NCBI GenBank assembly: GCA_028700115.1
Contig: JAQVTI010000004.1
Coordinates: 25,585 to 57,584, forward strand
Length of the DNA stretch: 32,000 nucleotides
Direction: 5' to 3'
Source: Candidatus Iainarchaeum sp.
GTDB taxonomy: Archaea; Iainarchaeota; Iainarchaeia; Iainarchaeales; CSSED10-239
Position numbers and translations under genes: made by a program. This document shows positions 965-31,305 of this stretch, one piece after another. The number at the start of each line of letters is the position of its first letter. Within the stretch, counting starts at the first letter, position 1. The notes under the pieces are model-generated. The model searched no databases. It was not told the origin of the DNA and saw only the letters and a list, made by a program, of their open reading frames with translations.

Positions 965-1214
965 TTGAAATCACTTCCATTTTTATATTTATAATTATTA
1001 ATATATTTAATTTATTTTTTTAATTTATTTTTAAAAATTTAATTTATTATAATAATTTTTAGATTTTAATTTATTATAATTATAGTTTATAATAATATAT
1101 TATTAGTTTATTTTTTATTAATTATATTTATATTTTTAATATATATTCTAAAAGCAAAGTTAATAAATATCTATGTGTATATTATATTTATAATATTTGA
1201 ATATGTGTATATAT

Positions 1215-1838: not shown

Positions 1839-2220
1839 ATTTAATAATTATTTGTTATAATTTAATTTATTTTTTTAAATAATTATTAAAGATGTTTTTG
1901 TTTTTATTTATTTTTTAAAATTTATCTTTGTTTTTTAAGAATATTTAATTAATTTATTTTTAGTTAATCTTGAAAAAAAAGATTATATTTATAAAAAATT
2001 TTTAGAAAATCTAAAATAAAATTGTAAACTAATTTATTTAATAAAATTAATTTAGTTAATTTATAAAAGTATTTTTTAAATTTAAAACTAAAATTTAGAA
2101 AATATTTTCTAATTTTTTTGATATTTTTTTTGTTTTTGTTGTTTTATTTAAATATAATAATTTTGGTAAAGTAGTAAAAAATATAAAAGAAACGATATAT
2201 AATTATTATATAAATTAAAT

Positions 2221-3144: not shown

Positions 3145-3153
3145 TTATTAAAT

Positions 3154-3837
3154 TTATTTTCCAAAATTTCTTTTAATATTTTTAAAATTTTTAATAATTT
3201 TATCTATATCTTTATTATTTATTTCTGGCCATAATTTTTTAAGAAAAACTAATTCTGAATAAATACATTCATATGTTAAAAATCCTGAAAGTCTTTTATA
3301 ATTTCCGGTTCTTACTATAATTTCAGGATCTATAAAATTTTTGTCATAAAGATATTTTGTAAAATTTTCTAAAGTTACTTTTTTAATATTTTTAGATATT
3401 ATTTTATTTACTGCATCAATTATTTCTTGTCTTCCACCATATCCAATACATAAATAAACTGTTAGTCTTGCATTTTTTTTTTTATTTTCAATTTCTTTTA
3501 ATTTTTTTTCTAATTTTTTTGGAATTATATTATAATTTCCTAATATTTTTATATTAATATCATAATTTTTAAATTTATCTTTAACATAAAATTTATCATC
3601 AAAAACTTTTACTAAATAATCTATTTCGTCTTTATTTCTATTTATATTTTCTGTAGATAATAAATAATAGCTAATTTGTTTAATTTCAGGATATTTATTA
3701 TAGATATAAATTGAGTTTTCAATTACTTTATCTGCTCCTTTTGAATATCCTTTATATAAATTAAATATTTTTTTTTTTGCAAATCTTCTATTTCCATCTG
3801 CAATAAAACCAATAGAATTTATTTTATTTTTCTCCAT
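3154..3837 (-). CDS. uppS: cis-prenyltransferase (undecaprenyl-diphosphate synthase family)
   Basis: IGFIADGNRRFAKKK (DGNRR[WF]A signature), GYGGRQEI and IVRTGNYKRLSGFL motifs; length 227 aa. Confidence 0.85.
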   Translation of the reverse strand: MEKNKINSIGFIADGNRRFAKKKIFNLYKGYSKGADKVIENSIYIYNKYPEIKQISYYLLSTENINRNKDEIDYLVKVFDDKFYVKDKFKNYDINIKILGNYNIIPKKLEKKLKEIENKKKNARLTVYLCIGYGGRQEIIDAVNKIISKNIKKVTLENFTKYLYDKNFIDPEIIVRTGNYKRLSGFLTYECIYSELVFLKKLWPEINNKDIDKIIKNFKNIKRNFGK

Positions 3838-3918
3838 AATTAATTCCTTTAAAAATTGTAAAATATAAAATATTTATAATCTATTATATTTATAATTGTT
3901 TTGTATATTTTTATAAAT

Positions 3919-4650
3919 ATGAATTTATTATATTTACCAATAATTATTATAACTATATTAATTTTAATAATAATTTCTATTCAAGATATTAAAAAAAGAG
4001 AAATTAATATATTTTATTTAATTTTTTTAGTGATTTTTAGTATTATTTATTTATGGGTTTTTATTTTTAAAAATGATTTAAATTTATGGTATTCTTATTT
4101 TTATCAATTAATAATTATTTTTGTATTTTTATTAATAATTTTTATATTAGGTAAACTAAGTAAATTTATATATATTGGAGAAGGAGATTTATATACTTTA
4201 TTTGCATTAAGTTTTACAAATATTTTCACTGAATTTTATATTTTAAGTATAATTATTTTATCTTTATTTATAACATTATTAATACCTTTATTTTTATTTA
4301 TATATAATTTATCTACATTTAATTTTCCAAAAAAACATGGTTTTTTTAAATCTATTATTTTAATGTTTTTAGGAATTAATATAAATATTAAAAAATTAAA
4401 TAACTTTTATTATTCTTTAGAAAAATTTTCCTTTAAAAATAATAAATTAAAATATATTATTTCTTTAAAACCAAATATATCTCCTGATAAAGAAATTAAA
4501 CAATTAAAAGCTTTTTCTAAAATACATAATATTAAGACAATATGGGTTTCTCCTTTAGTTCCTTTTGTAGTATCTATTACTTTAGCATATATTTTTATGT
4601 TTATTTTATCTTTTTATAATATTTTTAATATATTTATTTTCTTTTTATAG
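3919..4650 (+). CDS. archaeal prepilin/preflagellin peptidase (A24 family, FlaK/PibD-like)
   Basis: Polytopic membrane protein. The first catalytic Asp context is ISIQDIKKREI (D23 counted from the ATG at 3919) and the second is in YIGEGDLY (GxGD). An archaeal-type C-terminal extension is present. The ORF opens at 3901 (TTG) and the first ATG is at 3919. Confidence 0.75.
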   Translation: MNLLYLPIIIITILILIIISIQDIKKREINIFYLIFLVIFSIIYLWVFIFKNDLNLWYSYFYQLIIIFVFLLIIFILGKLSKFIYIGEGDLYTLFALSFTNIFTEFYILSIIILSLFITLLIPLFLFIYNLSTFNFPKKHGFFKSIILMFLGININIKKLNNFYYSLEKFSFKNNKLKYIISLKPNISPDKEIKQLKAFSKIHNIKTIWVSPLVPFVVSITLAYIFMFILSFYNIFNIFIFFL

Positions 4651-4767
4651 TTTTTTTTATTTTTAATAATTATTTTTAATAAGTTTAATTATAAACAAAA
4701 AATAGATATACTTTAAAAATTTAATGATTAATCATATAATATATTTAATTTAAAAATATATTTTAAT

Positions 4768-7599
4768 ATGGGTATTTTAGAAAAAATAGATATTATAGAT
4801 AAAAGAAATTCAATATCTACTAAAGATAATGTATCTAAATTATCTTTATTTGATAATATCTCAGAAAAGGATAGAAAAGTATATTCTATGGACTATACTA
4901 TAATTAAACCTTTATCAAAATTAGATGTTATTAATAAAAGTAATTTAGAAGTATCTTTAAAAAAAGATAATATTAATAATTATAATTTACCATTAGTTAT
5001 TCCTTCTGAAAAAATAATTTTTTCTAATAATTTACCATTAGTTATTCCTTCTGAAAAAATTGGTTTCTTAAATTCTAATTTTAAAGAATATATTAGTGTT
5101 TATAATAAATCTTTAAGTAAAAATAATTTTTTAAAAAAAAAAAATAAAAAAGAAAATTTAAATAATAATTATTTTATAACAGAAGAAGAACTTAAATCAA
5201 ATTTAAAATCTATAGCATATTTGTCTTTTTCTAAAGATAAATCTTCTATAAATAAGAAAACAAAATATCATTTTTCTAAAGATAATGTTGTTTCTGGAAT
5301 TAATTTTGATAAAAATAAAATTAAAGTAACAGAAGATATTGATGAGTTATTATCTGAATTAAATAAAAAGGCTTTAAATCTTGATAAAAAAGAAACTTTT
5401 TTAGAAGAATTTTCATTTTTAGAATCTAATCCAAAAGTTAATAAAATATCTTTAGATAATTATAAAATAAAACATCTTTATTCTAAAATAGACCAAATTT
5501 ATGAGAATATGGATAACTTAAATGTATTAGATCAAAGTTCTTTTTCTAAAAAAAATTTTATTAAAAATGATTTAAAAGATAAAAAAACAAATATAGAATC
5601 TAAAATAGGTATTTTTGAAGAAATTAAAGTCCCAGATATTTTTGTAATAAAAGATGATTCTAATAATTTAGAAGAAGTAATATCAAATGAATTTTCTAGT
5701 TATGAAAAGGATATTTCAAAAAAATCTACTATTCCTTTTTTTATATCTAAAGATAATGTATTAGATTTATCTGATGTTGTTTATAATTATATAAATAATT
5801 CTAAAAAAAATGCTTTTAATGATCCATCTAAAAAAATAAATATAAATTTAATATATAATAAAGCATTAAAAGATGATAATTATCTAAAAAATTTACTTTT
5901 AAATACAAAAAATACAACACAAATAAATAAAGAAAATGAAACTTTAAAAAATATTGAAAATAAATCAAAATTTTCTAAAAAGTCATTATTTAAAAATAAT
6001 ATTTTTAAAAAAGACAAATCTTTACAAGTTAATTTAAATGATTCTAATAAAAATTTAAATAATAAAAATTTAAATAATAAAAATTTAAATAATAAAAATA
6101 GATCTCAAAAATCAAATTATAAATTAAAGCCAAAATCAAATATAGATTATATTTTGCCAGTAAATGATTCTTCAAAAAATTTTGTAGTTAATAATTTTGA
6201 AAAGTCTATATCTCAAGATTTAATTTATTCTTTACCAATAAAAAATATAGATTTTTCTCAAAATAAAATTTATGAAAAATATTCTTTAGATGATTTTACT
6301 TTTGTAAATATTTATTTTGATAATTCTATAGGGCTTGTATATGATTTAATACAGCCAGAACTTAATAATAATCAACAAAAGTTATTTAATCAAATAAAAG
6401 ATATGTTTTATAATAATATAGATAAAGATTATTTTTATTTTAAAGGAGATTCTCATAAAATAAAAGAATATATTTCTAAAATATATGATGTTACTTTAAA
6501 TAAATTATCTTTTAAAATTAATTCTTTAGAAAGAAAACTTTTTTTAAAATTTATTCTTAGTGATTTTTCAGGTCTTGGTTTACTTTCAAGTTTATTAGAT
6601 GATTATAAAATTATTGAAATAAGTTGTAGTGGAGAAAATTCTTATTTATATGTGTATCATATAGAATATGGTCTTTTAAAAACAAATATTATATTTGAAG
6701 ATATTTTTAAATTAAATGAATTTGTTTTAAATCTTACAAAAAATATGGGGTTATATATTAGTTCTACAAATCCAATAATTGATGGATATCTCCCAAATGG
6801 TTATAAAGTAGAAGGAATTTATTCTACTGGAGATAGTAGTAGTAGAGGGTCTTCTTTTATTATTAAAAAATACTTGCAAAAATCAATAACTCCATGTGGT
6901 CTTGTAAATATAGGTGTTGGAATAAATGTTATTTTTGCATATTTTTGGCAAGCTATTGAAAATAAATATAAAATAATTATCACTGGAGAAGATGATAGTT
7001 TTATTATATATAATTCTATTGCTTTATTTTTCCCTCAAAAAAGAATTGTAAGTATACAAGATTATGATAAAATAATTTTACCACATAAAGAATGGGTTAA
7101 AAGAAAAGTATCTAAAAATGATGGGATTACAAAAAAAATATTAATTAATCAAACAAATTCTGAAAGACCAAATTATATAATACTTGATGTTTTTCAGAAA
7201 GATTTATTTAATTCTCAATGGTATAATATAGATTTATTTACTTGCCCTAAAAAAATACTTCCAGAAATAATAGAAAATCTAAATTCTGTTAATCAAAAAG
7301 CAATTATAATAGATATTAAGAGAATAAATTTTGGATATAGAGAATTAATAGAATTTAACACAGTTTTAGAAATTAATTCTAATCAAAAAAAAATATTTGA
7401 ATTTATTGTAAAAGATAAAGAATACCATGTAAATTTATTAAATTCTGATTTTAATATTATAGATATTAAAAATAAAGAGAAAGTTATAAATTGGTTATTA
7501 GAATCAAATATTTTTGATTATAAAGATTTTAATAATATTGTAAATGAATATTATATAGATAAAGATAATATTTTAAAAAAACTTGGAGTTGATAAATAA
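4768..7599 (+). CDS. FlaI/GspE-family secretion-ATPase homologue with degenerate nucleotide-binding motifs and a ~500-aa low-complexity N-terminal extension
   Basis: The C-terminal ~440 aa align with FlaI-type ATPases (IIEISCSG...YVYH..YG, NPIIDGYLPNG, SRGSSFIIKKY, AYFWQAIENKYKIIITG). The Walker A position reads GEDDSFIIY, Walker B reads RPNYIILDVFQKD, and the His box is absent. No GK[ST] occurs anywhere in the protein. Confidence 0.75.
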   Translation: MGILEKIDIIDKRNSISTKDNVSKLSLFDNISEKDRKVYSMDYTIIKPLSKLDVINKSNLEVSLKKDNINNYNLPLVIPSEKIIFSNNLPLVIPSEKIGFLNSNFKEYISVYNKSLSKNNFLKKKNKKENLNNNYFITEEELKSNLKSIAYLSFSKDKSSINKKTKYHFSKDNVVSGINFDKNKIKVTEDIDELLSELNKKALNLDKKETFLEEFSFLESNPKVNKISLDNYKIKHLYSKIDQIYENMDNLNVLDQSSFSKKNFIKNDLKDKKTNIESKIGIFEEIKVPDIFVIKDDSNNLEEVISNEFSSYEKDISKKSTIPFFISKDNVLDLSDVVYNYINNSKKNAFNDPSKKININLIYNKALKDDNYLKNLLLNTKNTTQINKENETLKNIENKSKFSKKSLFKNNIFKKDKSLQVNLNDSNKNLNNKNLNNKNLNNKNRSQKSNYKLKPKSNIDYILPVNDSSKNFVVNNFEKSISQDLIYSLPIKNIDFSQNKIYEKYSLDDFTFVNIYFDNSIGLVYDLIQPELNNNQQKLFNQIKDMFYNNIDKDYFYFKGDSHKIKEYISKIYDVTLNKLSFKINSLERKLFLKFILSDFSGLGLLSSLLDDYKIIEISCSGENSYLYVYHIEYGLLKTNIIFEDIFKLNEFVLNLTKNMGLYISSTNPIIDGYLPNGYKVEGIYSTGDSSSRGSSFIIKKYLQKSITPCGLVNIGVGINVIFAYFWQAIENKYKIIITGEDDSFIIYNSIALFFPQKRIVSIQDYDKIILPHKEWVKRKVSKNDGITKKILINQTNSERPNYIILDVFQKDLFNSQWYNIDLFTCPKKILPEIIENLNSVNQKAIIIDIKRINFGYRELIEFNTVLEINSNQKKIFEFIVKDKEYHVNLLNSDFNIIDIKNKEKVINWLLESNIFDYKDFNNIVNEYYIDKDNILKKLGVDK
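4983..5072 (+). repeat. 45-nt tandem duplication inside a CDS (NLPLVIPSEKI x2)
   Basis: The 33 nt taatttaccattagttattccttctgaaaaaat at 4983-5015 recur exactly at 5028-5060. Confidence 0.9.
6046..6099 (+). repeat. 15-nt tandem repeat aataaaaatttaaat, about 3.6 copies (NKNLN repeats) inside a CDS
   Basis: Exact copies at 6046-6060, 6061-6075 and 6076-6090, plus a partial copy to 6099. Confidence 0.9.
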
Positions 7600-8447
7600 T
7601 GTTTGGTAAAATATTATCACATATTTCTTTATTTTTATTTAAAGATATATTTATTAAATTACAAGATAATTTTAAAAATTTTTCAAAAGTTCTAAATTAT
7701 ATAAAAGTAAATGAAAATGCAGTATCTTATCTTTCAAATATTTTATTTATTTCTTTATTTTTAGTTATTGTTTTAGAGTTTATCTTTATATTTTTAATGG
7801 TTAAATTAAATATATATTTTAATATATTTAGTTTTTTTATAACTATATTTATATCATTTACAATTGGTTTAATGATTTTCTTAGTACTTTTTAAATTCCC
7901 ATATTATCTTTTAGATATAAAAAAAACAGAACTTGATATTGAATTTGAAAATAGTCTTAAACATTTATCTGTAATTTGTGATAATAAATTAAGTGTTTTA
8001 GATGTTTTAAGAATAATTATATCTATTGAAGATAATTATTTAATTTCTGAAAATACAAAAAAAATAATTACTAATTCTATAGATGATTTAAATTTAAAAA
8101 ATTCATTATTATATATTTCTGAAAATACCTTTTCAGAAATTGAAAAATTTTTTTTAATAAAATTAGTAGATGTTTTAGATAAGAAAGATAATTTAGAAGA
8201 TGTTGTTTTAAATTATTTAAATGAAATAGAATCTTCTAGAAAAGAATTAAGTGAACAAAGAAAAAGTAAAATAAATATTTTATTTCAAGTTAATATATTT
8301 ATTTTTTTAATTATAATAATATTATTAATTATAGTTTTTATAGTTCCAATAACTAATCAAACTATAAGACAATTATTAGGTTTTATTGCAATAATTCTTC
8401 CAATTATTGAATTTATTTTGATTTTAATTCTTTATAATAAAAATTAA
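7599..8447 (+). CDS. half-size FlaJ/TadB/TadC-like (T2SS-F type) pilus platform membrane protein
   Basis: N-terminal TM helices, a ~110-aa cytoplasmic helical domain (LKHLSVICDNKLSVLDVLRII...) and C-terminal TM helices. The start overlaps the upstream stop (TAATG at 7597-7601), which suggests coupling to the ATPase-like gene. Confidence 0.55.
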   Translation: MFGKILSHISLFLFKDIFIKLQDNFKNFSKVLNYIKVNENAVSYLSNILFISLFLVIVLEFIFIFLMVKLNIYFNIFSFFITIFISFTIGLMIFLVLFKFPYYLLDIKKTELDIEFENSLKHLSVICDNKLSVLDVLRIIISIEDNYLISENTKKIITNSIDDLNLKNSLLYISENTFSEIEKFFLIKLVDVLDKKDNLEDVVLNYLNEIESSRKELSEQRKSKINILFQVNIFIFLIIIILLIIVFIVPITNQTIRQLLGFIAIILPIIEFILILILYNKN

Positions 8448-8475
8448 AATATTTATTTAAATTTATATAAATTAA

Positions 8476-9612
8476 ATGAGAATTTTTATGGATAAAAAGA
8501 AATTTTTGAAAATAAATACTTTTATTTTAAAAAATGAATATCAATTATTAACTTTATCTGGATTTCTATCTGGGCTTTTAATTTTATTTATTACAAATAA
8601 ATTTTTTTTTAAAAGTGAACTTTATTATTTATTATTCTTTTTTGGAATTATAGTTTCTTTTTTTGGGTTTGTTTTAGAATATTTTATTAAAAAATATAAA
8701 ACTAAATCTTTAGAAAAAGTATTTAGTTATTTTTTATCTGATTTATCTAGAGATTATAAAAAAACAAAAAATCTATCATTATCTTTAATTAATATTTCTA
8801 ATTCAAATGTTTATAAGGGGATAGATAATGATATTAAAAAAATATCTAATAGAGTATCTTGGGGGGATAGTTTTGAAAATTCTTTAAAATGTTTGAATTT
8901 TTCTTTAGATAGTGATATTTTAAATCATACTTTAATATTATTTAATAATTTAAAAAATACTTCACTTTCTTTAGATCAGATTTTTTTAAAAATTTCAAAA
9001 GATATAAATCTCTTTAGAGAAGATAAACAAAAAAAAAGATATTTTAGTCATTTATTTAATTTATCTATTGTGTTTTTTATAGTTTTTATATTTGTTTTAC
9101 TTTATCTAGATATATTAATTGGAAGTAATTTTTTATGGTATAATTATTTAGATTCTATGAATAGAATATTTTTTGATAACTTTATATTATATATTGCAAT
9201 TGTTTTATCTTTTTTTACAGCTTTTGTTATAAGTACTATAAAAGATAATAAATTTGGGGGTTATCTGAAATATATTGGAATTTTTTTTATAATTATTATA
9301 ATTTTATTTCAAATTGTAATTCCAAAACCAGAAGCTCAAGAAGTTTTAATTAGTACTATTAATTATATGAATCTTGAAGATATAGATTATTTTTATTTAG
9401 AAAATATTATATCTATACAATCTTTAAGTTCCAAATATATTTCAGAAAATACAACTGTAGATAGAGTTTATTTTAAACCTTTAGATGTAAATTTGTGTAA
9501 AGATACTTCTTGTTTAGAATATACTATTTTAATTAAAGATGCTTCTTTTTTTAATTTTGAATTAATTAAAGTAGACAAAAATATAATTATTTTATATGAA
9601 TATAATTATTGA
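8476..9612 (+). CDS. second half-size FlaJ/TadB/TadC-like platform membrane protein with a C-terminal extracytoplasmic extension
   Basis: Same TM, cytoplasmic-domain, TM layout as the upstream gene, plus a ~85-aa Cys-containing tail. An alternative ATG lies at 8488. Confidence 0.5.
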   Translation: MRIFMDKKKFLKINTFILKNEYQLLTLSGFLSGLLILFITNKFFFKSELYYLLFFFGIIVSFFGFVLEYFIKKYKTKSLEKVFSYFLSDLSRDYKKTKNLSLSLINISNSNVYKGIDNDIKKISNRVSWGDSFENSLKCLNFSLDSDILNHTLILFNNLKNTSLSLDQIFLKISKDINLFREDKQKKRYFSHLFNLSIVFFIVFIFVLLYLDILIGSNFLWYNYLDSMNRIFFDNFILYIAIVLSFFTAFVISTIKDNKFGGYLKYIGIFFIIIIILFQIVIPKPEAQEVLISTINYMNLEDIDYFYLENIISIQSLSSKYISENTTVDRVYFKPLDVNLCKDTSCLEYTILIKDASFFNFELIKVDKNIIILYEYNY

Positions 9613-9649
9613 ATTTATAAATAAAATTATTTTAAAAAATTGAATTAAT

Positions 9650-9997
9650 ATGATTTATAAAATTGAAAAAAACAAAATTATTTTTAAAAAAATTAAACTC
9701 GCATTAAATCTTGGACAAATGAGAGGCTTAATGTTTTACCCAAGATCTAAATTTAATTTTGCATTAATTTTTGATAGAAGTTATGAAGACAAAATTAATT
9801 CTTCTCTTCATATGTTTTTTGTATTTTTTCCAATTGATGTTTTATTTTTAAATTCTAATAAAGAAATAGTTGATATTAAATTTAATTTTAGACCTTTTAG
9901 ATTTTATATTCCTAAAGAAAAAGCAAGATATGTTATTGAACTTCCTTGTTTAAAAAAAAATAAGCAATTAAAAATTAAACAAAAAGTTAATTGGTGA
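9650..9997 (+). CDS. DUF192 family protein
   Basis: MRGLMFYPR...LHMFFVFFPIDVLFLNSNKEIVDI...ARYVIELP matches the DUF192 pattern (GLM, Mxxxxx[PI]xD[IV]xF, YVLE). Confidence 0.6.
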   Translation: MIYKIEKNKIIFKKIKLALNLGQMRGLMFYPRSKFNFALIFDRSYEDKINSSLHMFFVFFPIDVLFLNSNKEIVDIKFNFRPFRFYIPKEKARYVIELPCLKKNKQLKIKQKVNW

Positions 9998-10087
9998 TTT
10001 TATAAGTTTATATAAATCTATTCCATTTTAACATTTTTTAAAATTTTTAAACTTTGCAAAGACTTTTAAATATTTTATATAATATTT

Positions 10088-10097
10088 TTTTATAAAT
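10088..10097 (+). promoter_or_regulatory. TATA-box-like element ttttataaat upstream of pilin gene 1
   Basis: The same 10-mer precedes all three pilin-like genes. It starts 27 nt (gene 1), 33 nt (gene 2) and 31 nt (gene 3) upstream of the ATG. Confidence 0.45.
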
Positions 10098-10114
10098 AGA
10101 GATTTAGATTTATT

Positions 10115-13100
10115 ATGATATATAATTTTAATAAAAAAATATCAATATCCCCATTAATTGCAGTAATTTTAATAATTTTAGTTGCATCAGTTTTAACTGG
10201 TGCAATTTTATCTTGGTCTAAATCCTCTATTAAAAATTCACTTTCAGATTCTTCTCAAATTTCTAATCAAAGTTTAAATATTTTAGAATGTAAGGATATT
10301 TATCTAAAAGTAGAGTCATTTACATATTATTCTGATTTAAATTATTTTAATTTACTTGTAACAAACACATCTAGTTATAAATTACAAAACCCACAAATAA
10401 CTATTTTAGGGATTGATAGTTTGGGAGAAGATATTAGACTTACAGGTAATTTTAATTCATCTTTAGATAAAGGAGAAACTAAAGTTTTTTCTACAAACTC
10501 AGTTGATTTTTATTTTTCTTTTCAAACACATGAAGTTTCTGATCTAAATTCAGATAATATTTCAGAAATTACATTTGTTTTTCAAACATGCCCTACAAAT
10601 ATTTTATATTTTAAAGATTGGGATATTATAGGTGCGATTGTAAGTGGTGAAACAACTCCAGTTGCTTTATTTGTTTTAGGTTTACATTATCTTTTTAATG
10701 AAGGAAGTGGAACTATTGTTAATGATTTATCTGATAATTCTTTAGATGGAGATTTAAATAGTGGTTTTTGGCAAACAAATGAAGTTGATATTAATTTTTT
10801 AAAATTAGATAATAGTTATAGGGATTCTTTAATAGTTGATGCAAATTTAAATGGTCTAGAAGATGATTCTGGATATAGTTATACTTTTACAAATTCAGGA
10901 TCTGTTGCTTCAATTAACCAAAATGGAGAGGCTATGGCTAGAGATTTTGATGGGGTTAGTGATTATTTAATAATTAATTCTCCAATTAAAGAAGATAAAT
11001 ATCCATTAACAGTTTCATTTTGGATAAATGCAGATTCATGGACTACAAATTATTATGCAGCAGGAGATTTATATTATTCTTGGCTTATAAATAAAAGGGA
11101 TAATGGTACAGATAGATGTTGGCAGTTTATGTTGTCTGATGGATATCCAAGAGTTGATATGTTTAATGATGCAGGAGATGGAATTGATGGAGATTTACAA
11201 TCTAATCAAATTATAACTTTAGAAGAATGGGTGCATATTCTTTTAACAACTGGAGGTCAAACAGGAGATTCTGCAAAAATATATCAAGATGGTGAATTAG
11301 TTTCTGAAGTAACTTTAACAGGAGATAGGCATTTAAGTTCAAGAGAAGTTGTAATTGGTGCTGCTGGTTGGTCTTTTGATTTATTTAATTTTGATGGAGA
11401 TATTTCTGATGTTAAGATTTGGAATAAAGAGCTTAGTGAAAGTGAAGTTAAAAGTGTGTATAATGAACAAAAATCAGATTATGTTACTTCAAATGATTCT
11501 AATAGTTTAGATTTGTCTGATGGGTTTACAATAAATGCATGGGTTAATACAAACAATTTAGATGAACAAACAATTGCTTCAAAAGAAAGTTTTAATACAA
11601 GTTTGTCTTCTGCAGATTTTGAAACATTTGATTTACAAACAATAAGTTCTAGTTATACTGGTTATTTTGATGAATATTTCGATGGGAGATATGTTTATTT
11701 TTTACCTTATCATAATGGATCTGTATATCATGATAAATTTTTTAGATATGATACTACAAAAGATTTTATTTCTTCTTCAAGTTATGAATTTTTTGATTTA
11801 AGTACAGTTAATTCAAAATGTACTGGATTTACAGGAATTTCTTCTGATGGTGATTATTTATATTTAAGTACCTATTCAGGAAGTATTAATGGATGTTTTT
11901 TAAAATATGATTTAAATTCTTCTTTTACATCTTCATCTAGTTATGAATTTATGGATTTAACTACTTTAGATTCTAGTTATAAAGGTTTATTTAGTAGTTT
12001 ATTTGATGGAAGATATGTTTATATGTTAGTATATAATAATGGTAGTTATACTGGTAAGATCATAAGATATGATACTTTATCTGATTTTACATCTTCATCT
12101 AGTTATATTGTTTTTGATTTATCTACAATTAATTCTTTGTATAAAGGATATGCTTCAATGATTTTTGATAATAGATATATTTATTTTATACCTTTTCATA
12201 ATGGAGTTAGACAGGGTAATTTTTTAAGGTATGATACATATGAATCTTTTACAGATTCATCAAGTTATGAATATTTTAATTTAGAAACTATAAATTCTAA
12301 TTATAAAGGATTTATTGGAGGTGTTTTTGATGGAACTTATGTTTATCTTGTGCCTTATACAAATGGTGATTATTTTTCAAGTGTTGTTAGATATGATACT
12401 TCTTTAGATTTTGATAATTCTAAAAGTTATTCTGTATTTGAATTAACTAATTTAAATTCAAATTATAAAGGATATAGAAGTGCTGTTTTTGATGGGAGAT
12501 ATGTTTATTTTGTGCCTCATAATAATGGATCCTATCATGGAAATTTAATAAAATATGATATTTCTAAAGATTTTTTAGAAAATTCTAGTTATTCTGTATT
12601 TGATACTTCTAGTTTAAATTCTGGTTTTAAAGGTTTTTTTGGTGGGCTTTATGATGGTAAATATTTATATTTGCAAGGTTATAGTGATCGATCTACTGGA
12701 ATTGTTGGAAGATATGATACTAGAGAAAATAATAATTTTAATTTTAAAATAAATTCATCTTCTCAAGATGGTATTAGTCAATCTAAACAAGGAATTAAAT
12801 TTAATTTAGATACAAATGAAGGTTATTATCAATTGTTTGATAATAATTATACTGAAACTGGTTGGCATATGTATTCTGCAAGTTATGATAATAATTTAAT
12901 GAAAATATATTATGATGGTAATCTTTCAAAAAGTAAACAAGTAAGTGGAGCTATAACTAGTACCATTTTAGATGATTTAATAATTGGAAAAACAAATACT
13001 GGTTTTTATGGACTTGATGGAAATATTTCTGATTTTAAAATATATGAAGAAGCTTTATCTGATGAAAATATTTCTGATTTATATGATCAAAATATAAATG

Positions 13101-13765
13101 ATTATCCTTCTAGTCCTTTTGGTTCACATCCAACTTTAGAAGAAGATTTAGTTTCTTATTATTCATTTGATGGAAACGCAGAAGATTCAAAAGGAACAAA
13201 TGATGGAATTTCTAATAGTGTTAATTATTCAACTATGAATGGAATAATAAATAGTGGTGCTGAATTTAATTCTAACAATGATAGTTATATTCAATATTCT
13301 TCAATAATAACTCCTAAAGGTGAAAAAAGTATTTCTATTTGGTTAAAAACTTCTCAAACTAGTTGGTGTAGTATTTTTAAAAATAATAGTGATGGTACTC
13401 AAAGTTATGGTGTTTCAATATATGGTTCTGGACATGTTGAACTTTCTCAAGCATCTTCAATTAAAGTTTTAGAAATTTCTCCTGTAGGTGATTTAAGAGA
13501 TGGAAATTGGCATCATTTAGTGTTTACTTGGGATGGAACTACTAATTCAGATACAGTTAAATTATATATTGATGGAATTTTAAATAATCAAAATACTGCA
13601 AATAATACTGAAACAGTAACTCCTTCATATAATTTAATTATAGGTAGATATACTAATGTTTATGATTATGATGGAGATATAGATGAAGTTGGTATTTGGG
13701 AAAGAGCTTTAACTCAAAAAGAAGTAATGGATATTTACAATCTTGGAAATGGGCTTTCTAGATAA
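10115..13765 (+). CDS. modular type IV pilin-like surface protein: class III signal peptide and pilin head, three LamG-like domains, 7 x ~54-aa repeat block
   Basis: N-terminus NKKIS/ISPLIAVILIILVASVLTGAILSW (archaeal Pilin_N type). Three LamG-type endings: FDGDISDVKIWNKELSESEV, LDGNISDFKIYEEALSDENI and YDGDIDEVGIWERALTQKEV. Confidence 0.75.
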   Translation: MIYNFNKKISISPLIAVILIILVASVLTGAILSWSKSSIKNSLSDSSQISNQSLNILECKDIYLKVESFTYYSDLNYFNLLVTNTSSYKLQNPQITILGIDSLGEDIRLTGNFNSSLDKGETKVFSTNSVDFYFSFQTHEVSDLNSDNISEITFVFQTCPTNILYFKDWDIIGAIVSGETTPVALFVLGLHYLFNEGSGTIVNDLSDNSLDGDLNSGFWQTNEVDINFLKLDNSYRDSLIVDANLNGLEDDSGYSYTFTNSGSVASINQNGEAMARDFDGVSDYLIINSPIKEDKYPLTVSFWINADSWTTNYYAAGDLYYSWLINKRDNGTDRCWQFMLSDGYPRVDMFNDAGDGIDGDLQSNQIITLEEWVHILLTTGGQTGDSAKIYQDGELVSEVTLTGDRHLSSREVVIGAAGWSFDLFNFDGDISDVKIWNKELSESEVKSVYNEQKSDYVTSNDSNSLDLSDGFTINAWVNTNNLDEQTIASKESFNTSLSSADFETFDLQTISSSYTGYFDEYFDGRYVYFLPYHNGSVYHDKFFRYDTTKDFISSSSYEFFDLSTVNSKCTGFTGISSDGDYLYLSTYSGSINGCFLKYDLNSSFTSSSSYEFMDLTTLDSSYKGLFSSLFDGRYVYMLVYNNGSYTGKIIRYDTLSDFTSSSSYIVFDLSTINSLYKGYASMIFDNRYIYFIPFHNGVRQGNFLRYDTYESFTDSSSYEYFNLETINSNYKGFIGGVFDGTYVYLVPYTNGDYFSSVVRYDTSLDFDNSKSYSVFELTNLNSNYKGYRSAVFDGRYVYFVPHNNGSYHGNLIKYDISKDFLENSSYSVFDTSSLNSGFKGFFGGLYDGKYLYLQGYSDRSTGIVGRYDTRENNNFNFKINSSSQDGISQSKQGIKFNLDTNEGYYQLFDNNYTETGWHMYSASYDNNLMKIYYDGNLSKSKQVSGAITSTILDDLIIGKTNTGFYGLDGNISDFKIYEEALSDENISDLYDQNINDYPSSPFGSHPTLEEDLVSYYSFDGNAEDSKGTNDGISNSVNYSTMNGIINSGAEFNSNNDSYIQYSSIITPKGEKSISIWLKTSQTSWCSIFKNNSDGTQSYGVSIYGSGHVELSQASSIKVLEISPVGDLRDGNWHHLVFTWDGTTNSDTVKLYIDGILNNQNTANNTETVTPSYNLIIGRYTNVYDYDGDIDEVGIWERALTQKEVMDIYNLGNGLSR
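11618..12727 (+). repeat. seven tandem ~54-aa (~162-nt) coding repeats, possibly a beta-propeller
   Basis: Units begin at aa 502, 557, 610, 664, 718, 772 and 826. Consensus: Y.xFDLxTxNSxYKGxxxxxFDGRYVYxVPxxNGxxxGxxxRYDTxxDFxxSSS. Confidence 0.8.
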
Positions 13766-13772
13766 AAATATA

Positions 13773-13782
13773 TTTTATAAAT
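13773..13782 (+). promoter_or_regulatory. TATA-box-like element ttttataaat upstream of pilin gene 2
   Basis: It lies inside a ~85-nt block (13766-13850) that is nearly identical to 15042-15125. Its centre is about 27 nt before the ATG at 13806, consistent with a leaderless or very short-leader mRNA. Confidence 0.5.
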
Positions 13783-13805
13783 ATTTTCTTTTATCTTAAT
13801 AGTAT

Positions 13806-15041
13806 ATGTTATATAAAGTTAAATCAAAAAAAGCAATTTCTCCTGTAATTGCAATTATTTTTATAGTTCTAATTGCAGCGATTTTAACTGGAGCTATGCT
13901 TTCTTGGTCTAAATCTTCAACTAAAGATAAATTAGAAATAACTTCTAAAGAATCAAGACAAATAGTTGATGATTTAACTTGTAGTGATATAGAATATTCA
14001 ATTGAAGATGTTGTAATTGATACTAGAACAAAAGATTTTAATTTTTTATTTTTTAATAATTCAACAATTAAACTTTATAACCCAAAGATAACTATTTTAG
14101 GAAAAAGTTTATCTGGTGAAGACTTAAGATTTGTTGGAGAGTTTAATTCTTCTATAGATAAAATGGAAAGTAAAACTTTTTCAACAACTTCTGATTTTAA
14201 TTATTCTTATCAATCTCATGAAACTGATCAATTAGATGTTGATTCAATTGAAGAAATTACAATTGTTTTTAATACATGTCCAAATAAAATATTTTTAATA
14301 GATACATATGAAACAATTACTTCTGCAGAACCATCTCCTTATTTTAGCGGGCATTCAACTTTAGATAATAATATAGTTGCATATTATTCATTTGATGGAA
14401 ATGCAGAAGATCAAGTTGGAACTTGTGATGGAACAGTTAGTGGTGCATTAAATAGTTCTAGTTATGGTTTAATTAATCAAGGTTATAGATTTGATGGGGA
14501 TTGGGATTATATTAATTTAGGAAAAAATAATGCAATTGAATCTTTATTTGATCCAGGAAATAGTTTTTCTATATCTTTTTGGATGTATTCTTTAGAGAAT
14601 GTAACTTCTAACTGGAGATGGGTTTTAAGTAAAGCATATACTTCTCATACACCTCCATATTATCAATTTGATTTTAAATTAAATAGTATTGGATCTATGT
14701 CTTCTGTACTTTATAATGATTCTGTATCTATTTATTTAGGAGATTCTGATTCTAGTTATGAAGAATATAATAATTGGAATTATGTTGTAATTACAGTTGA
14801 TTTAACTAATAATATATATAATATATATATTAATAATAATTTATTAGTAACAGATACTACTCCTGAAGGAACTTATACAAATTATGATACTGAACTTGCA
14901 ATTGGTAGAAATATTAAATTTAATAATAATTCAGTTTATGATTTTTATGGTTATATTGACGAAGTTGGAATTTGGGAAAGAGAATTAACCCAAGATGAAG
15001 TTTCTGCATTATATAACTCTGGAAATGGTCTTTCTAGATAA
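13806..15041 (+). CDS. modular type IV pilin-like surface protein: class III signal peptide and pilin head plus one LamG-like domain
   Basis: KSKKA/ISPVIAIIFIVLIAAILTGAMLSW; the head module is paralogous to genes 1 and 3. LamG features are YYSFDGNAED, FSISFWMY and YGYIDEVGIWERELTQDEV. Confidence 0.75.
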   Translation: MLYKVKSKKAISPVIAIIFIVLIAAILTGAMLSWSKSSTKDKLEITSKESRQIVDDLTCSDIEYSIEDVVIDTRTKDFNFLFFNNSTIKLYNPKITILGKSLSGEDLRFVGEFNSSIDKMESKTFSTTSDFNYSYQSHETDQLDVDSIEEITIVFNTCPNKIFLIDTYETITSAEPSPYFSGHSTLDNNIVAYYSFDGNAEDQVGTCDGTVSGALNSSSYGLINQGYRFDGDWDYINLGKNNAIESLFDPGNSFSISFWMYSLENVTSNWRWVLSKAYTSHTPPYYQFDFKLNSIGSMSSVLYNDSVSIYLGDSDSSYEEYNNWNYVVITVDLTNNIYNIYINNNLLVTDTTPEGTYTNYDTELAIGRNIKFNNNSVYDFYGYIDEVGIWERELTQDEVSALYNSGNGLSR

Positions 15042-15048
15042 TGATATA

Positions 15049-15058
15049 TTTTATAAAT
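15049..15058 (+). promoter_or_regulatory. TATA-box-like element ttttataaat upstream of pilin gene 3
   Basis: Same conserved cassette as at 13773-13782. Its centre is about 26 nt before the ATG at 15080. Confidence 0.5.
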
Positions 15059-15079
15059 GTTTTCTTTTATTTTATTATT

Positions 15080-17731
15080 ATGTTATGTAAAGTTAAATCA
15101 AAAAAAGCAATTTCTCCAATAATAGCAGTAATTTTAATTATTTTAATTGCATCTGTTTTAACTGGAGCTATTTTATCTTGGTCTAAATCTTCAACTAAAG
15201 AAAATATGGCTTTAACCTCTAAGGAGTCAAGAGAAATTGTAAGTGATTTAACTTGTAATGATTTAGTTTATTATATTGATTCTATAGATTTTAGATATGC
15301 AACAAATGATTTTACTTTTTTAATAGTAAATAATTCTTCACAAAAACTTTTTTTTCCAAAAATAACTGTTTTTGGAAAAACTTTATCTGGGGAAGATATT
15401 AAATGGGTTGGAGAGTTTGAAGATTATATAGATAAAGCACAAACTAAATCTTTTTTAACATCTTCTGAGAATTTCACATATACTTCTCAAACACATACAA
15501 CAAATATAGATGAAAATAGTTTAAGTGTAAATCTTGTTTTTCAAACATGTCCTAATAAAATTATAACAATTAATAGTTATGATGTTATTTATCCTGTTTG
15601 TGGAGATTCTTTATGTGAAGGAGATGAAACTTCTGAAAATTGTTATTCAGATTGTGGAAGTTGTGGGGATAGTGTTTGTTCTGCTCCTGATGAAAATTTA
15701 GATACTTGTGCAATTGATTGTGCGGTTTGTGGAGATGGCATTTGTTCTTCAAGTGTAGAAAACACAGCTTCATGTTTACAAGATTGTCCTCCTAATTATT
15801 TTTCTTCAACTTGGAATACAGCAACTACTGGATATGGTTCAAGTGCTTCTAATCAAATAAATCTTCCTTTAGTTTCAAGTGGAACTTATGATTTTAATGT
15901 AAATTGGGGAGATGGTTCAGTTTCACAGATTACTTCATATAATGATCCTGATAAAACACATACTTATGCTTCTTCAGGGATTTATGATGTGAATATGTGG
16001 GGAACTATTGAAGGTATTTCTTTTGAATATTCTAGTGATAGGTATAAATTAACTGAAATTTCTCAATGGGGAGATTTTAGTCCTAAAAATAGTAAATTTA
16101 GTTATTGTGAAAATTTAGATATTACAGCAACTGATATTTTGGATTTAACTGGAGTTACAAGATTAATTTGTTTTTTTTGTAATTGTTCAAGTTTAACTCA
16201 AATTCCAAATATAGACCAATGGGATGTTTCAAATATTACAGATATGTCTAGTTTGTTTGCTGGTACTTCTTTTAATCAAGATCTTTCTTCTTGGGATGTT
16301 TCAAATGTTACTGATATGTATGGGATGTTTTCAAATACAAATAATTTTAATCAACCTTTAAATAGCTGGGATGTTTCTAGTGTAACTGATATGGGATCTT
16401 TATTTTTAAATGCAGATGCTTTTAATCAACCTTTAAATAACTGGGATGTTTCTAATGTTACTAATATTAATAATATGTTTAATAATGCAGATGCTTTTAA
16501 TCAACCTTTAAATAATTGGGATACATCAAATGTAACTACACTATATGGAACTTTTGCTGAAACTTTAGCATTTAACCAATCTTTAAATGATTGGAATACA
16601 TCTAAAGTAACAACTTTTGAAAAAATGTTTTATGGAAGTGAATCTTTTAATGGTGCAGTTAATAATTGGGATACATCTAATGTGACTACCATGAATGGTA
16701 TGTTTCAAAATGCTTATGTTTTTAATCAACCTTTAAATGATTGGAATGTTTCAAATGTAACTAATATGGGTTATATGTTTAAAGAAGCATATGCTTTTAA
16801 TCAAGATTTAGATCAATGGGATATTTCTAGTTTAAGTAATATTTTTCAAATGTTTTCAGGAGCAATTAATTTTGATGGAAATATTTCAACATGGGATGTT
16901 TCAAATATAACTTATCTTGGTGATTTATTTAATTGTAATATATATAGTCAACATCTTGGTACTTTTATTACAGGTTGTCATTTTAATCAAGATATTTCTT
17001 CTTGGGATGTTTCAAATGTTACTAGTATGTCTGGTTTGTTTGAAAATCAAGTAGATTTTAATCAACCTTTAAATGATTGGGATGTTTCAAATGTAACTAA
17101 TTTGAGTGGTATGTTTAATGGTGCTAAATCTTTTAATCAACCTTTAAATGATTGGAATACTTCTAAAGTAACTAATATTAGACATATTTTTTATAATGCA
17201 AATTCATTTAATCAAGATTTAAATAATTGGGATACTTCAAATGTTTCAGATATGTCTTATGTGTTTATGATGGCTAATTTATTTAATGGAGATGTATCTA
17301 CATGGGATACTTCAAATGTAACTTCAATGGATTGGATGTTTTATTCTGCTGATTCATTTAATCAACCTTTAAATAATTGGGATACTTCTAAAGTTACTGA
17401 AATGGATTGGATGTTTTATTCTGCAGATAATTTTAATCAACCTTTAAATAACTGGGATGTTTCAAATGTAACTGATATGAGTTTTATGTTTAATGATGCT
17501 AAATCTTTTAATCAAGATATAGGTGATTGGAATACTTCTAAGGTTACTAATATGAATAGTATGTTTTATTCTTTAGATTATTTTAATCAAGATCTTTCTT
17601 CTTGGGATATTTCTAAAGTGACTTCTAGTTTTACTGCCTTTTTTTATGGAACTAGTGTGTCAGCAGCAAACTGTCAAGCAATGGCAACTGCTTGGGGAAA
17701 AACTTGTGCAGATTTAGGATGTACTTGTTAG
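15080..17731 (+). CDS. modular type IV pilin-like surface protein: class III signal peptide and pilin head, 3 CGDxxC Cys-rich repeats, DUF285/BspA-like repeat array
   Basis: MLCKVKSKKA/ISPIIAVILIILIASVLTGAILSW. The ORF opens at 15041, but the conserved promoter and 5' cassette shared with gene 2 place the start at 15080. Downstream are a VNWGDGS...HTY segment and then repeated FNQPLNNWDVSNVTxMxxMF units. Confidence 0.75.
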   Translation: MLCKVKSKKAISPIIAVILIILIASVLTGAILSWSKSSTKENMALTSKESREIVSDLTCNDLVYYIDSIDFRYATNDFTFLIVNNSSQKLFFPKITVFGKTLSGEDIKWVGEFEDYIDKAQTKSFLTSSENFTYTSQTHTTNIDENSLSVNLVFQTCPNKIITINSYDVIYPVCGDSLCEGDETSENCYSDCGSCGDSVCSAPDENLDTCAIDCAVCGDGICSSSVENTASCLQDCPPNYFSSTWNTATTGYGSSASNQINLPLVSSGTYDFNVNWGDGSVSQITSYNDPDKTHTYASSGIYDVNMWGTIEGISFEYSSDRYKLTEISQWGDFSPKNSKFSYCENLDITATDILDLTGVTRLICFFCNCSSLTQIPNIDQWDVSNITDMSSLFAGTSFNQDLSSWDVSNVTDMYGMFSNTNNFNQPLNSWDVSSVTDMGSLFLNADAFNQPLNNWDVSNVTNINNMFNNADAFNQPLNNWDTSNVTTLYGTFAETLAFNQSLNDWNTSKVTTFEKMFYGSESFNGAVNNWDTSNVTTMNGMFQNAYVFNQPLNDWNVSNVTNMGYMFKEAYAFNQDLDQWDISSLSNIFQMFSGAINFDGNISTWDVSNITYLGDLFNCNIYSQHLGTFITGCHFNQDISSWDVSNVTSMSGLFENQVDFNQPLNDWDVSNVTNLSGMFNGAKSFNQPLNDWNTSKVTNIRHIFYNANSFNQDLNNWDTSNVSDMSYVFMMANLFNGDVSTWDTSNVTSMDWMFYSADSFNQPLNNWDTSKVTEMDWMFYSADNFNQPLNNWDVSNVTDMSFMFNDAKSFNQDIGDWNTSKVTNMNSMFYSLDYFNQDLSSWDISKVTSSFTAFFYGTSVSAANCQAMATAWGKTCADLGCTC
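15599..15793 (+). repeat. three tandem ~21-22-aa Cys-rich coding repeats (CGDxxC-x7-8-C-x3-C)
   Basis: CGDSLCEGDETSENCYSDC, CGDSVCSAPDENLDTCAIDC and CGDGICSSSVENTASCLQDC. Confidence 0.8.
16201..17645 (+). repeat. about 19 tandem ~25-aa (~75-nt) DUF285-type coding repeats (bacterial surface protein 26-residue repeat)
   Basis: 19 occurrences of W[DN][VTI]S[NKS] spaced 24-25 aa apart, with one longer unit. Most carry an N-[VI]-T sequon. Confidence 0.85.
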
Positions 17732-18036: not shown

Positions 18037-18918
18037 ATGAGTTTTAAAGAACAAACAAATAGATTAAAAGAAAACTGGTTTATTATTCTTTTAATTGTTG
18101 TGCTTTTATTTGTAATTGTTCCTTTTATCATAGGAATTGGTGGAATCACAAACTACTCAGCAAGAGATATGGTTGCATCATATGATCAAGGATTTACAAA
18201 TGAAGCAATGGGTAAATCTAGTTATTATTATGGAGAAACAGACTTTGCTCCTGAAATAACTGATAGAATTGTTACAATTTCTTCAAGTTTATCTTCTGAA
18301 GTAGAATACAAAGATTTTGAATCTAAGGAAAATGAATTTAAAGGAATTTTATCAGAATATGATACATTTATTTTAAATGAAAATGTATATGAATCAGGTT
18401 TTGGTAAAAAGAAATATATGAATGGTTCTTATACAATTAAAGTTAATTCAGAAGAATATTTAAATTTAGTAGATGAACTTAAAACTATTGGAGAAGTTAA
18501 AAGCTTTTCTGAAAATAAAGAAGATATAACAGGGAGTTATACAAATAAGAATATTGAATTAGAACTAGAAAAAGAAAAACTAAGAAAATATAATGAGTTA
18601 TATGATACTAATGATATTAGTATGGAAGACAAACTTGATTTAACAGATAAGATTTTCTATCAAGAAAGAAGAGTTAAATACTTAGAAGATTCAATAAACA
18701 ATATGGATAAGAGAGTAGAATATAGTACAATTAACTATTCTTTAAGAGAAAAACAATCAAGTTATGCAGACGTTATACTTGTTAAGTTTTCTGAACTGAT
18801 TAAAACTTTAGTGTCAAGTTTTAATGTCTTATTACACATTATTTTTGCAGTTGTGCCATTTGTAGTTTTAACACTTCTAATTGTATTATTTGCAAGAAGA
18901 CATAAGAAGAGAAGATAA
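18037..18918 (+). CDS. DUF4349-like membrane-anchored protein
   Basis: N-terminal TM helix, central coiled-coil segment (EDITGSYTNKNIELELEKEKLRKY...RVKYLEDSINNMDKRVEYSTINYSL) and C-terminal TM helix, as in DUF4349 proteins. Confidence 0.5.
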   Translation: MSFKEQTNRLKENWFIILLIVVLLFVIVPFIIGIGGITNYSARDMVASYDQGFTNEAMGKSSYYYGETDFAPEITDRIVTISSSLSSEVEYKDFESKENEFKGILSEYDTFILNENVYESGFGKKKYMNGSYTIKVNSEEYLNLVDELKTIGEVKSFSENKEDITGSYTNKNIELELEKEKLRKYNELYDTNDISMEDKLDLTDKIFYQERRVKYLEDSINNMDKRVEYSTINYSLREKQSSYADVILVKFSELIKTLVSSFNVLLHIIFAVVPFVVLTLLIVLFARRHKKRR

Positions 18919-31233: not shown

Positions 31234-31305
31234 GCCCTAGTAGTCTATCGGTTAGGATGCGACCCTGTCAAGGTCGCGGGACGGGTCCGACTCCCGTCTA
31301 GGGCG
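31234..31305 (+). tRNA. tRNA-Asp (anticodon GTC), 72 nt, no encoded CCA
   Basis: Hand-folded cloverleaf. Acceptor stem gccctag/ctagggc, anticodon stem cgacc/ggtcg with loop ctGTCaa, T stem acggg/cccgt. A T-run follows. Confidence 0.85.

Follow-up and report, generated by a model that had tools for sequence, protein, structure and literature searches.

A candidate type IV pilus locus of the Iainarchaeia with a predicted pseudo-ATPase and a variable cassette of modular pilins

A window of 32,000 nucleotides from Candidatus Iainarchaeum sp. (GenBank assembly GCA_028700115.1, contig JAQVTI010000004.1, positions 25,585 to 57,584) contains a run of eight genes on the forward strand, which encode, in this order, an A24 peptidase, a homologue of the secretion ATPases FlaI and GspE2, two half-size platform proteins, a DUF192 protein and three large proteins with pilin-like N-termini. 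We consider it moderately probable that this locus is the pilin-processing and supply half of a type IV pilus (type IV filament, TFF) specific to the Iainarchaeia, and that its three large genes encode modular pilins placed in a hypervariable cassette. The ATPase homologue of the cluster appears to be a conserved pseudo-ATPase, and an intact ATPase, probably the motor of the system, is encoded in a second set of genes further downstream. Adhesin modules on pilins are already an established concept; the conserved pseudo-motor is the unusual part.

The gene order agrees with an earlier sequence-only reading of this DNA. The run spans positions 3901-17731, and the ORF calls (ORF, open reading frame) place neighbouring genes -1 to 118 nt apart. 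That reading had also proposed a pilus in place of an archaellum, and we came to the same view of a pilus-type cluster: the window has 26 ORFs with 80 residues or more, none of which belongs to the FlaH, FlaF, FlaG, FlaX or FlaCDE families, and the archaellum was dropped on account of these missing accessory genes. Matches to ArlF/ArlG were weak (E 0.05) and confined to the hydrophobic N-terminus of the first large protein. The guess that the DNA comes from a DPANN-like archaeon was right, as the locus belongs to the Iainarchaeia/Diapherotrites, with relatives that include Candidatus Forterrea. The three things on which the sequence-only reading had staked itself, namely class III-type N-termini, platform and ATPase homology in the upstream genes, and a gene order shared by related metagenome-assembled genomes (MAGs), were all found.

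The A24 peptidase matched the Arc_PepC_II model with 44.6 bits against a cutoff of 29.9 (E 2e-11). The general Peptidase_A24 model scored 22.1 bits, under its cutoff of 26.5, and the FlaK model of NCBIfam (E 8e-12) stayed far below its equivalog cutoff. In an alignment with the structure of FlaK (PDB-code: 3S0X; E 2e-6) the first catalytic aspartate lies in ‘SIQDIKKREI’, and the GxGD motif reads ‘IGEGD’. Both catalytic motifs are present, and the protein is predicted to be the class III signal peptidase that belongs to an archaeal type IV pilus or TFF. Its gene lies upstream of the ATPase homologue in every relative whose contig extends there. Platform copy a matched the Pfam family T2SSF (5e-7, 30.1 bits against a cutoff of 25.2) and, weakly, ArlJ/FlaJ; copy b, which carries an extra domain of about 100 residues beyond the last membrane segment, came just short of the T2SSF cutoff (8e-5, 23.0 bits against 25.2). 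The two would provide the polytopic platform of the T2SSF/FlaJ/TadC family that is typical of such filaments. Copy a is syntenic in all relatives and copy b is always the next gene. Compared with the closest relative, the ratios of non-synonymous to synonymous substitution rates (dN/dS) are 0.22 for copy a and 0.23 for copy b, next to 0.19 for the methyltransferase encoded beyond the cassette. The DUF192 protein (PF02643 5.8e-11, 42.8 bits; PRK03760 5e-25) has no signal peptide, and its gene directly follows platform b in every relative whose contig reaches there; a literature search on DUF192 returned nothing pertinent to pili. Of the families that the sequence-only reading had named, LamG_3, DUF285, DUF192 and, for copy a, T2SSF were matched; Peptidase_A24, T2SSF for copy b and Pilin_N fell below their cutoffs, and T2SSE did not match the ATPase homologue of the cluster at all.

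The second gene, described earlier as FlaI-like, deserves this name for its fold but not for a role as motor. Structure profiles matched GspE2 (PDB-code: 2OAP) at 2e-39 and FlaI (PDB-code: 4IHQ) at 9e-25, with alignments that end at Walker B. Where Walker A would read ‘GETASGKTT’, the 943-residue protein has ‘GEDDS--FI’, with a two-residue deletion and neither the lysine nor the threonine; in place of the Walker B ‘IIVGEVR’ stands ‘IILDVFQ’, without the glutamate, and the segment with the His box is missing. All 18 homologues examined have likewise lost the His box and carry the P-loop deletion. In this superfamily the P-loop lysine is established as necessary for ATPase activity, and because of this requirement the protein is predicted to have lost ATPase activity. 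It would therefore not qualify as the secretion ATPase of the cluster, which should combine Walker A, Walker B, Asp and His boxes and be encoded with the platform; intact ATPase motifs occur in the window only in the separate gene of the second set.

Does the degenerate ATPase mark a pilus system that is being lost in a reduced genome? The loss of motifs would fit such decay, and so would the pilin genes that are interrupted in relatives by a stop codon (Forterrea) or a frameshift (locus L005). We regard this explanation as close to refuted. The same motifs are missing from 18 homologues at 44-51% identity, and 76 columns are invariant in an alignment of 16 of these sequences, which are 45-51% identical. 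Moreover, the dN/dS of the ATPase-like domains (0.21) resembles that of the platforms and the methyltransferase, and all ORFs of the window are intact and reproduced in independent assemblies. The shared motif loss together with the low dN/dS argues that the pseudo-ATPase is conserved and not decaying; it is under purifying selection and is predicted to retain its fold. A model by AlphaFold2 (AF2), built from 5 sequences only, reached a pLDDT of 71.5, and a Foldseek search with it found 2OAP (2e-23, TMq 0.68) and FlaI (7e-20) over about 500 columns. The N/K-rich N-terminal extension evolves under relaxed constraint (dN/dS 0.68) and contains an exact tandem repeat (15 nt x 3.7, at 6045-6099) as well as a duplicated ‘NNLPLVIPSEKI’ motif; total length varies from 791 to 1226 residues among the homologues of relatives. 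No naturally inactive PilB or FlaI paralogue was described in the literature searched, and neither of two surveys of archaeal TFF (PMC4858521; bioRxiv 10.64898/2026.04.22.720090) mentions an inactivated ATPase or DUF192.

The second set of genes, which had not been connected to the cluster before, begins about 8 kb downstream of the end of the pilin cassette and comprises an ATPase, a membrane protein and two further platform copies. The ATPase matched T2SSE (1.3e-35) and Fer4_6 (1e-7), both Walker A (‘GNTGSGKTT’) and Walker B (‘IIGEIR’) are preserved in it, and its alignment with 2OAP covers residues 122-571; it is probably the motor of the pilus system. Platform copy c is related to copy a according to hhalign (95% probability, E 2.8e-8), while BLASTP between the platforms of the two sets detected no similarity, which rules out a recent duplication as the origin of the second set. 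The sets thus appear to be ancient paralogues. The 383-residue membrane protein between ATPase and copy c was seen in this lineage only. No peptidase or pilin genes of its own accompany the second set in any locus examined. The two sets are contiguous in locus L013, and the second lies 4.4 kb past the NDK gene in L025, L026 and L029. The 4Fe-4S domain of this secretion ATPase is a feature that the two archaeal surveys cited above do not mention.

The three large proteins share an N-terminal module of 170-172 residues, here called the head, with 42-57% identity. The heads have in common the motif KK[A/S]-ISP[LVI]IA, followed by a hydrophobic helix, and Trp-34, Cys-59 and Cys-158 are invariant. 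For the third protein the start at the Met at 15080 (883 residues) is more likely, with an N-terminus ‘MLCKVKSKKAISP’ that parallels ‘MLYKVKSKKAISP’ of the 411-residue protein. Its longest ORF opens 13 codons further upstream, at 15041-15079 (MIYFINVFFYFII); that start would overlap the second pilin gene and is for this reason probably not used. A six-frame scan of the whole window recovered three N-termini of the class III type and no more, and no small pilin, as the sequence-only reading had stated. Family models recognized the heads poorly. TIGR02537 (arch_flag_Nterm) reached 20.4 bits against a cutoff of 20 with the third protein only, and Pilin_N gave E-values of 0.008 for the second and 0.0025 for the third protein, both below its cutoff, and no match to the first.

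A word-indexed homologue search with head 2 found no match. An index-free search with a profile of the head retrieved 83 relatives among 1.8 billion representatives, 36 of them below 1e-10. This family falls into many stand-alone proteins of 163-179 residues, which end right after the last strand of the head, and fusions of up to 2867 residues, whose bodies contain LamG_3, CBM_4_9, RCC1, PKD or CHB_HEX_C domains. The AF2 model of head 2, from an alignment of 17 sequences (pLDDT 85), is lollipop-like, with a helix at residues 13-49 and a sandwich of eight strands. In a sequence-profile search of the PDB the top four matches to the head were all archaeal type IV pilins (E 0.0016-0.0043); the Foldseek matches that also cover the N-terminal helix are weak and include pilus subunits of S. 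solfataricus and P. calidifontis. From sequence and model together we take the head to be a genuine archaeal pilin of a lineage-specific type, predicted to consist of a long N-terminal helix and an Ig-like sandwich. Most stand-alone members of the family have four conserved cysteines and hence two likely disulfides, of which the three heads of the window and the stand-alone orthologue of the closest relative (L020) keep only Cys-59 and Cys-158. We considered the loss of the second disulfide as a mark of fusion and rejected this, since the fused head of L026 has four cysteines and the stand-alone pilin P0005 has two; the loss appears to be lineage-specific and unrelated to fusion. The dN/dS of head 1 (0.27) and head 2 (0.56) indicates purifying selection to moderate constraint.

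The bodies attached to these heads bear out the earlier description of giant proteins in which a pilin module is fused to LamG, repeat and DUF285 modules, for which adhesion would be the obvious role. In pilin 1 the head (residues 1-172, nt 10115-10630) is followed by a LamG-like stretch (259-451), a block of seven 54-residue repeats (497-870) and further LamG-like stretches at 874-992 and 1008-1216; LamG_3 matched at 1.7e-56 in four stretches. The repeats have the pattern ...SSYxxFDL...YxGxxxxxFDGRYVYxxP...G...RYD, and we infer that they may form a propeller. Pilin 2 is simpler, with its head (1-171), a 15-residue linker and one LamG/ConA-like module at 234-400 (LamG_3 6e-18). Pilin 3 consists of the head (1-170), three Cys-rich repeats of 22 residues (CGDxxC...CxxDC; 173-236), 19 units of DUF285 at 381-866 (BspA-like leucine-rich repeats, 4.6e-208, 679 bits) and a Cys-rich tail; a WGDGS/HTY segment looks PKD-like by eye and has no Pfam match. 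All three proteins thus appear to be modular pilins, in the sense of a pilin module joined to at least one domain that is not specific to pili. No substrate-binding-protein (SBP) domain was found in them by the Pfam scan. The bodies appear to evolve fast: the body of pilin 2 has a dN/dS of 0.98 against the closest relative, where its orthology is uncertain.

These proteins might also form a membrane-anchored coat of adhesins or S-layer-like proteins without any filament, in which the class III signal and helix serve export and anchoring, while the platform and the dead ATPase act as a static complex or docking site. The in-cluster ATPase homologue, devoid of every motif for nucleotide hydrolysis, would suit such a coat, as would the very large and repeat-rich bodies with 1.7-2.6 N-glycosylation sequons per 100 residues and the DUF4349 membrane protein whose gene adjoins the cassette. 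However, an intact ATPase/platform set stands in conserved linkage with the cluster, the heads keep the full globular pilin domain and exist in stand-alone versions, and the machinery genes are under purifying selection like housekeeping genes. We find a coat of this kind quite improbable.

The setting of the three genes was compared with that in relatives. A synteny scan of GTDB species representatives yielded 15 loci, all from MAGs of the Iainarchaeia/Diapherotrites, including the complete genome of Candidatus Forterrea multitransposorum. The kept order is [ATP-grasp], a 307-residue protein, A24 peptidase, pseudo-ATPase, platforms a and b, DUF192, [cassette], L10e, methyltransferase and NDK, and from the A24 peptidase to NDK it holds in the 15 GTDB genomes and in metagenome loci; the synteny of the machinery itself extends to at least 20 Iainarchaeia genomes. 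Between DUF192 and L10e lies what appears to be a hypervariable pilin cassette. Its content ranges from nothing through small pilins to fusions that exceed 900 residues: it is empty in L014, L015, L016 and L019, combines a large protein with one or two small pilins in L005 and L010, is a mixture of small and large in L022 and L024, and has large proteins only in L011, L025 and L026. The closest relative, L020, is collinear with the window at 75-86% nucleotide identity. In place of the 1216-residue fusion it encodes the 172-residue stand-alone pilin P0005, which is 77% identical to head 1; the alignment breaks off there at position 10624. It further has one LamG pilin of 397 residues, and nothing in it corresponds to body 1 (3.1 kb) or to pilin 3.

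Could the three fusions nevertheless be the sole subunits, with heads that polymerise at the membrane into a short stalk or pseudopilus on which every subunit bears a binding module, bindosome-like in spirit? We judge such an apparatus possible but unlikely. For it speak the lack of a small pilin in 32 kb, the fact that head 1 is the orthologue of the closest relative's small pilin and is itself fused here, the cassette of L026 with an 811-residue fusion as its sole gene, the dN/dS values of the heads, and the discussion, for archaea, of functional proteins with class III signal peptides (SPIII) that are assembled by TFF machineries. On the other hand, the proposal rests on 32 kb of one genome, and the cassettes of most relatives hold at least one stand-alone pilin. 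The four genomes with empty cassettes imply that pilins can be encoded elsewhere, and the three proteins keep a whole pilin domain, unlike the substrates of the bindosome. A body of 700-1000 residues on every subunit would also be sterically demanding, with which the modelling of PilB agrees by analogy (PMC8179133). An apparatus that does without a small pilin, as the sequence-only reading had pictured it, is further weakened by the stand-alone pilins of 163-179 residues in the same slot of relatives; the orthologue in L020 implies that the missing small pilin is a peculiarity of the cassette of this genome and not of the system.

At the head-body junction the relatives differ by small changes. 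L026 has an uninterrupted head-body fusion (junction at about 826-832). L010 (Forterrea, 14300-14320) and L029 (about 810-820), with 93% nucleotide identity to L026, carry a single in-frame CAA to TAA change exactly at the junction, and the body of 643 codons remains open. In L005 (15050-15070) a CCTGCCTG tetranucleotide is duplicated at the same junction, so that a pilin of 178 residues and a body ORF of 766 residues lie in different frames. The site reads ATG CCTG CCTG AAA, and the removal of one CCTG restores the frame of the fusion (M P E I F F T D L V). To judge from this, the frame was shifted by a 4-nt duplication, and slipped-strand variation is possible at this site. From the sequences, the adhesin part could have been knocked out recently, or the interruptions could be sites of recoding, readthrough or phase variation.

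These junctions, together with the paired ATPase sets, leave room for two separate proposals, which we jointly consider clearly unlikely. In the first, the set of the dead FlaI and the Fe-S ATPase set form a two-ring or two-platform machine, where the FlaI paralogue, together with the split platform, peptidase and cassette that belong to it, may be driven or gated by the Fe-S ATPase set; this could give a redox-sensitive motor. In the second, pilin genes toggle between a small shaft subunit and a giant adhesin, and readthrough of a stop codon, frameshifting or phase variation may determine in what proportion a single gene yields shaft and adhesin subunits; this idea derives from the TAA of Forterrea, the CCTG duplication of L005 and the uninterrupted fusions in the window and L026.

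The fusions themselves are not products of assembly. Two Logan runs and GCA_028691725.1 independently match 1178-11508, 11603-15541 and 13648-16438 with 0-3 mismatches, and all three head-body junctions lie inside these spans, which rules out a chimera; the junction of pilin 1 is confirmed in GCA_028691725.1, and the 411-residue protein is identical in two Logan assemblies. The guanine plus cytosine (GC) content of the window is 20.2%, which is very low for a segment of an archaeal genome (relatives range from 21% to 31%). The machinery genes have 13-19%, and the A24 peptidase gene, at 12.7%, is the lowest of the genes for membrane proteins. A horizontal origin of the cassette, considered from its higher GC (23-28%), was rejected: L10e (29.5%) and NDK (26.9%) are equally high, so that composition tracks the type of protein.

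We return to the favoured reading of a pilus whose processing and supply half is encoded by the cluster. The A24 peptidase would cut after KK[A/S], and the heads would insert into the pilus via their N-terminal helices, where, by analogy with bacterial modular pilins, they would probably be few in number or confined to the tip. A small member of the family, with its gene beyond the window, would make up the shaft, or else the heads would do so. The ATPase of the downstream set would supply the energy, while the dead paralogue may serve platform a/b as a scaffold, adaptor or regulator. Glycans or proteins of a host cell or of a substrate are the expected ligands of the C-terminal modules, and host attachment by this locus is plausible. 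Swapping of bodies, fusion and splitting at the head-body junction would then diversify the binding repertoire between close strains.

Several points weigh against this reading. Pilin_N stays under its Pfam cutoff with all three proteins and TIGR02537 passes with one only, and in Foldseek the head matches the solved pilin structures weakly (E > 1e-3). The part of the genome that was read, 32 kb, holds no small pilin, and DUF192 is a conserved accessory gene without a known role. A cooperation of the two ATPase/platform sets is deduced only from their linkage. Subunits of 883-1216 residues may be sterically incompatible with the body of a filament, which would leave a position at the tip or a display without filament.

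The features of the window are listed in Table 1. The 307-residue protein upstream of the cluster has no Pfam match and an N-terminal ‘DMHTHLGP’ motif; in relatives with contigs that reach there, its homologue (E 1e-106 to 1e-172) lies directly upstream of the A24 peptidase. A gene for undecaprenyl-diphosphate synthase sits between the two here and in L020. The DUF4349 membrane protein (1.9e-24) just past the cassette occupies the same place in L020; in Forterrea-like genomes its gene lies downstream of the second set, which shows that it is not tightly bound to the cassette. Two tRNA genes follow downstream of a membrane protein of the VTT/DedA family.

Table 1. Features of the 32,000-nt window discussed in the text, with positions counted from its first letter.
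Feature	Position	Strand	Evidence or remark
307-aa protein	2221-3144		no Pfam match
Undecaprenyl-diphosphate synthase	3154-3837	-
A24B class III signal (prepilin) peptidase, FlaK/PibD type	3901-4650	+	alternative ATG start 3919
FlaI/GspE2 homologue, 943 aa	4768-7599	+	structure-profile matches 2OAP, 4IHQ
N/K-rich low-complexity N-terminal extension, about 500 aa	4768-6267	+	no family match
FlaI/GspE2-fold domain pair without catalytic motifs	6268-7599	+	2OAP, FlaI alignments
Half-size T2SSF platform copy a (TadB/TadC-like)	7599-8447	+	Pfam T2SSF
Half-size T2SSF platform copy b	8476-9612	+	Pfam T2SSF just under cutoff
DUF192 protein	9650-9997	+	PF02643
Putative modular pilin 1, 1216 aa	10115-13765	+	LamG_3 and shared head
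Putative modular pilin 2, 411 aa	13806-15041	+	LamG_3 and shared head
Putative modular pilin 3, 883 aa from Met at 15080	15080-17731	+	DUF285 and shared head; ORF opens 15041 (896 aa)
DUF4349 membrane protein	18037-18918		just past cassette
Intact secretion ATPase with N-terminal 4Fe-4S domain, 582 aa	25800-27548	+	T2SSE, Fer4_6
Membrane protein, 383 aa	27647-28798		no family match; between intact ATPase and platform copy c
Platform copy c, 245 aa	28841-29578	+	hhalign to platform a
Platform copy d, 272 aa	29695-30513	+	T2SSF 6e-5
VTT/DedA-family membrane protein	30552-31151
tRNA-Asp(GTC) and tRNA-Ser(GCT)	31234-31509

How DPANN archaea recognize and hold their hosts or surfaces is largely unknown, and this locus offers a concrete candidate for an attachment device. 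No member of the Iainarchaeia (Diapherotrites) has been cultured, and a free-living or symbiotic lifestyle is debated (PMC5905446); the paper on the Forterrea genome makes no mention of pili. The ligands of the strain-variable lectin-like and leucine-rich-repeat modules, which would be displayed on pilin carriers, can be tested without culturing the organism. Modular pilins, a concept established in bacteria, would then occur in archaea too, with cargo of unusual size. A dead but conserved paralogue of the motor, for which we found no description in type IV filament systems, raises the question whether motors have been re-used as scaffolds. The annotation of the clade can also be improved directly, as the 943-residue protein and the 411-residue pilin, the two records that were checked, are labelled ‘hypothetical’.

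In bacteria, modular pilins are widespread and diverse; they include PilB (vWA) and PilC (ConA-like lectin) of Streptococcus sanguinis and have been proposed to be tip adhesins (Raynaud et al. 2021, PMC8179133). The three proteins described here resemble them in having a small N-terminal pilin module, a short linker and a putative binding module, among them a ConA/LamG lectin, and in being encoded beside the machinery. In contrast, their head is of an archaeal type, with the class III motif KK[A/S]-ISP and a predicted Ig-like sandwich, and not of the IPR012902 type; the original definition of modular pilins (PMC8179133) used this bacterial signature and is not applicable to archaeal heads. Moreover, the bodies reach about 1040 residues with several modules, and all three genes of the cassette are modular with no small pilin beside them.

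A split platform has been reported for the archaeal systems 1 and 4A, including DPANN (bioRxiv 10.64898/2026.04.22.720090, Sivabalasarma & Albers 2026), and duplicated ATPase/TadC pairs that share one pilin set are known in archaea (Makarova 2016, PMC4858521). The locus shares a two-gene platform, a dedicated peptidase and many fast-evolving pilins with TFF System 1 (the Epd system of Methanococcus maripaludis) and some 4A/4B loci, and the Epd-like two-gene platform appears in both of its sets. Proteins with class III signals and adhesin or sugar-binding domains are a further likeness to split-platform archaeal systems; a split platform is also a feature of bacterial Tad systems. Unlike the split-platform systems surveyed, the locus has two ATPase/platform sets, one of them predicted to be dead, and DUF192, and by best matches its peptidase is FlaK/PibD-like with Arc_PepC_II, whereas that of System 1 is of the EppA type.

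The bindosome (Bas) of Sulfolobus likewise combines large extracellular functional proteins that bear class III signals with a TFF ATPase/platform pair. Beyond their signal peptide, bindosome substrates are not known to have more than a short hydrophobic segment, whereas the proteins of the window keep a full pilin domain and have no SBP domain, and the ATPase of the second set reaches 92 bits with the BasE model against a cutoff of 1000. In Haloferax volcanii the PilB1-C1 and PilB3-C3 pairs reportedly act on one pilin set, with both ATPases active. The arrangement here is similar in its two ATPase/platform operons and one supply of pilins, and differs in that one ATPase has no catalytic site. 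Non-catalytic partners with a P-loop fold that organise or regulate the motor or platform exist in ArlH/FlaH (RecA/KaiC-type) and TadZ/CpaE (MinD/ParA-type). Unlike these, the dead partner predicted here is a paralogue of the FlaI/GspE2 motor itself, with both domains kept.

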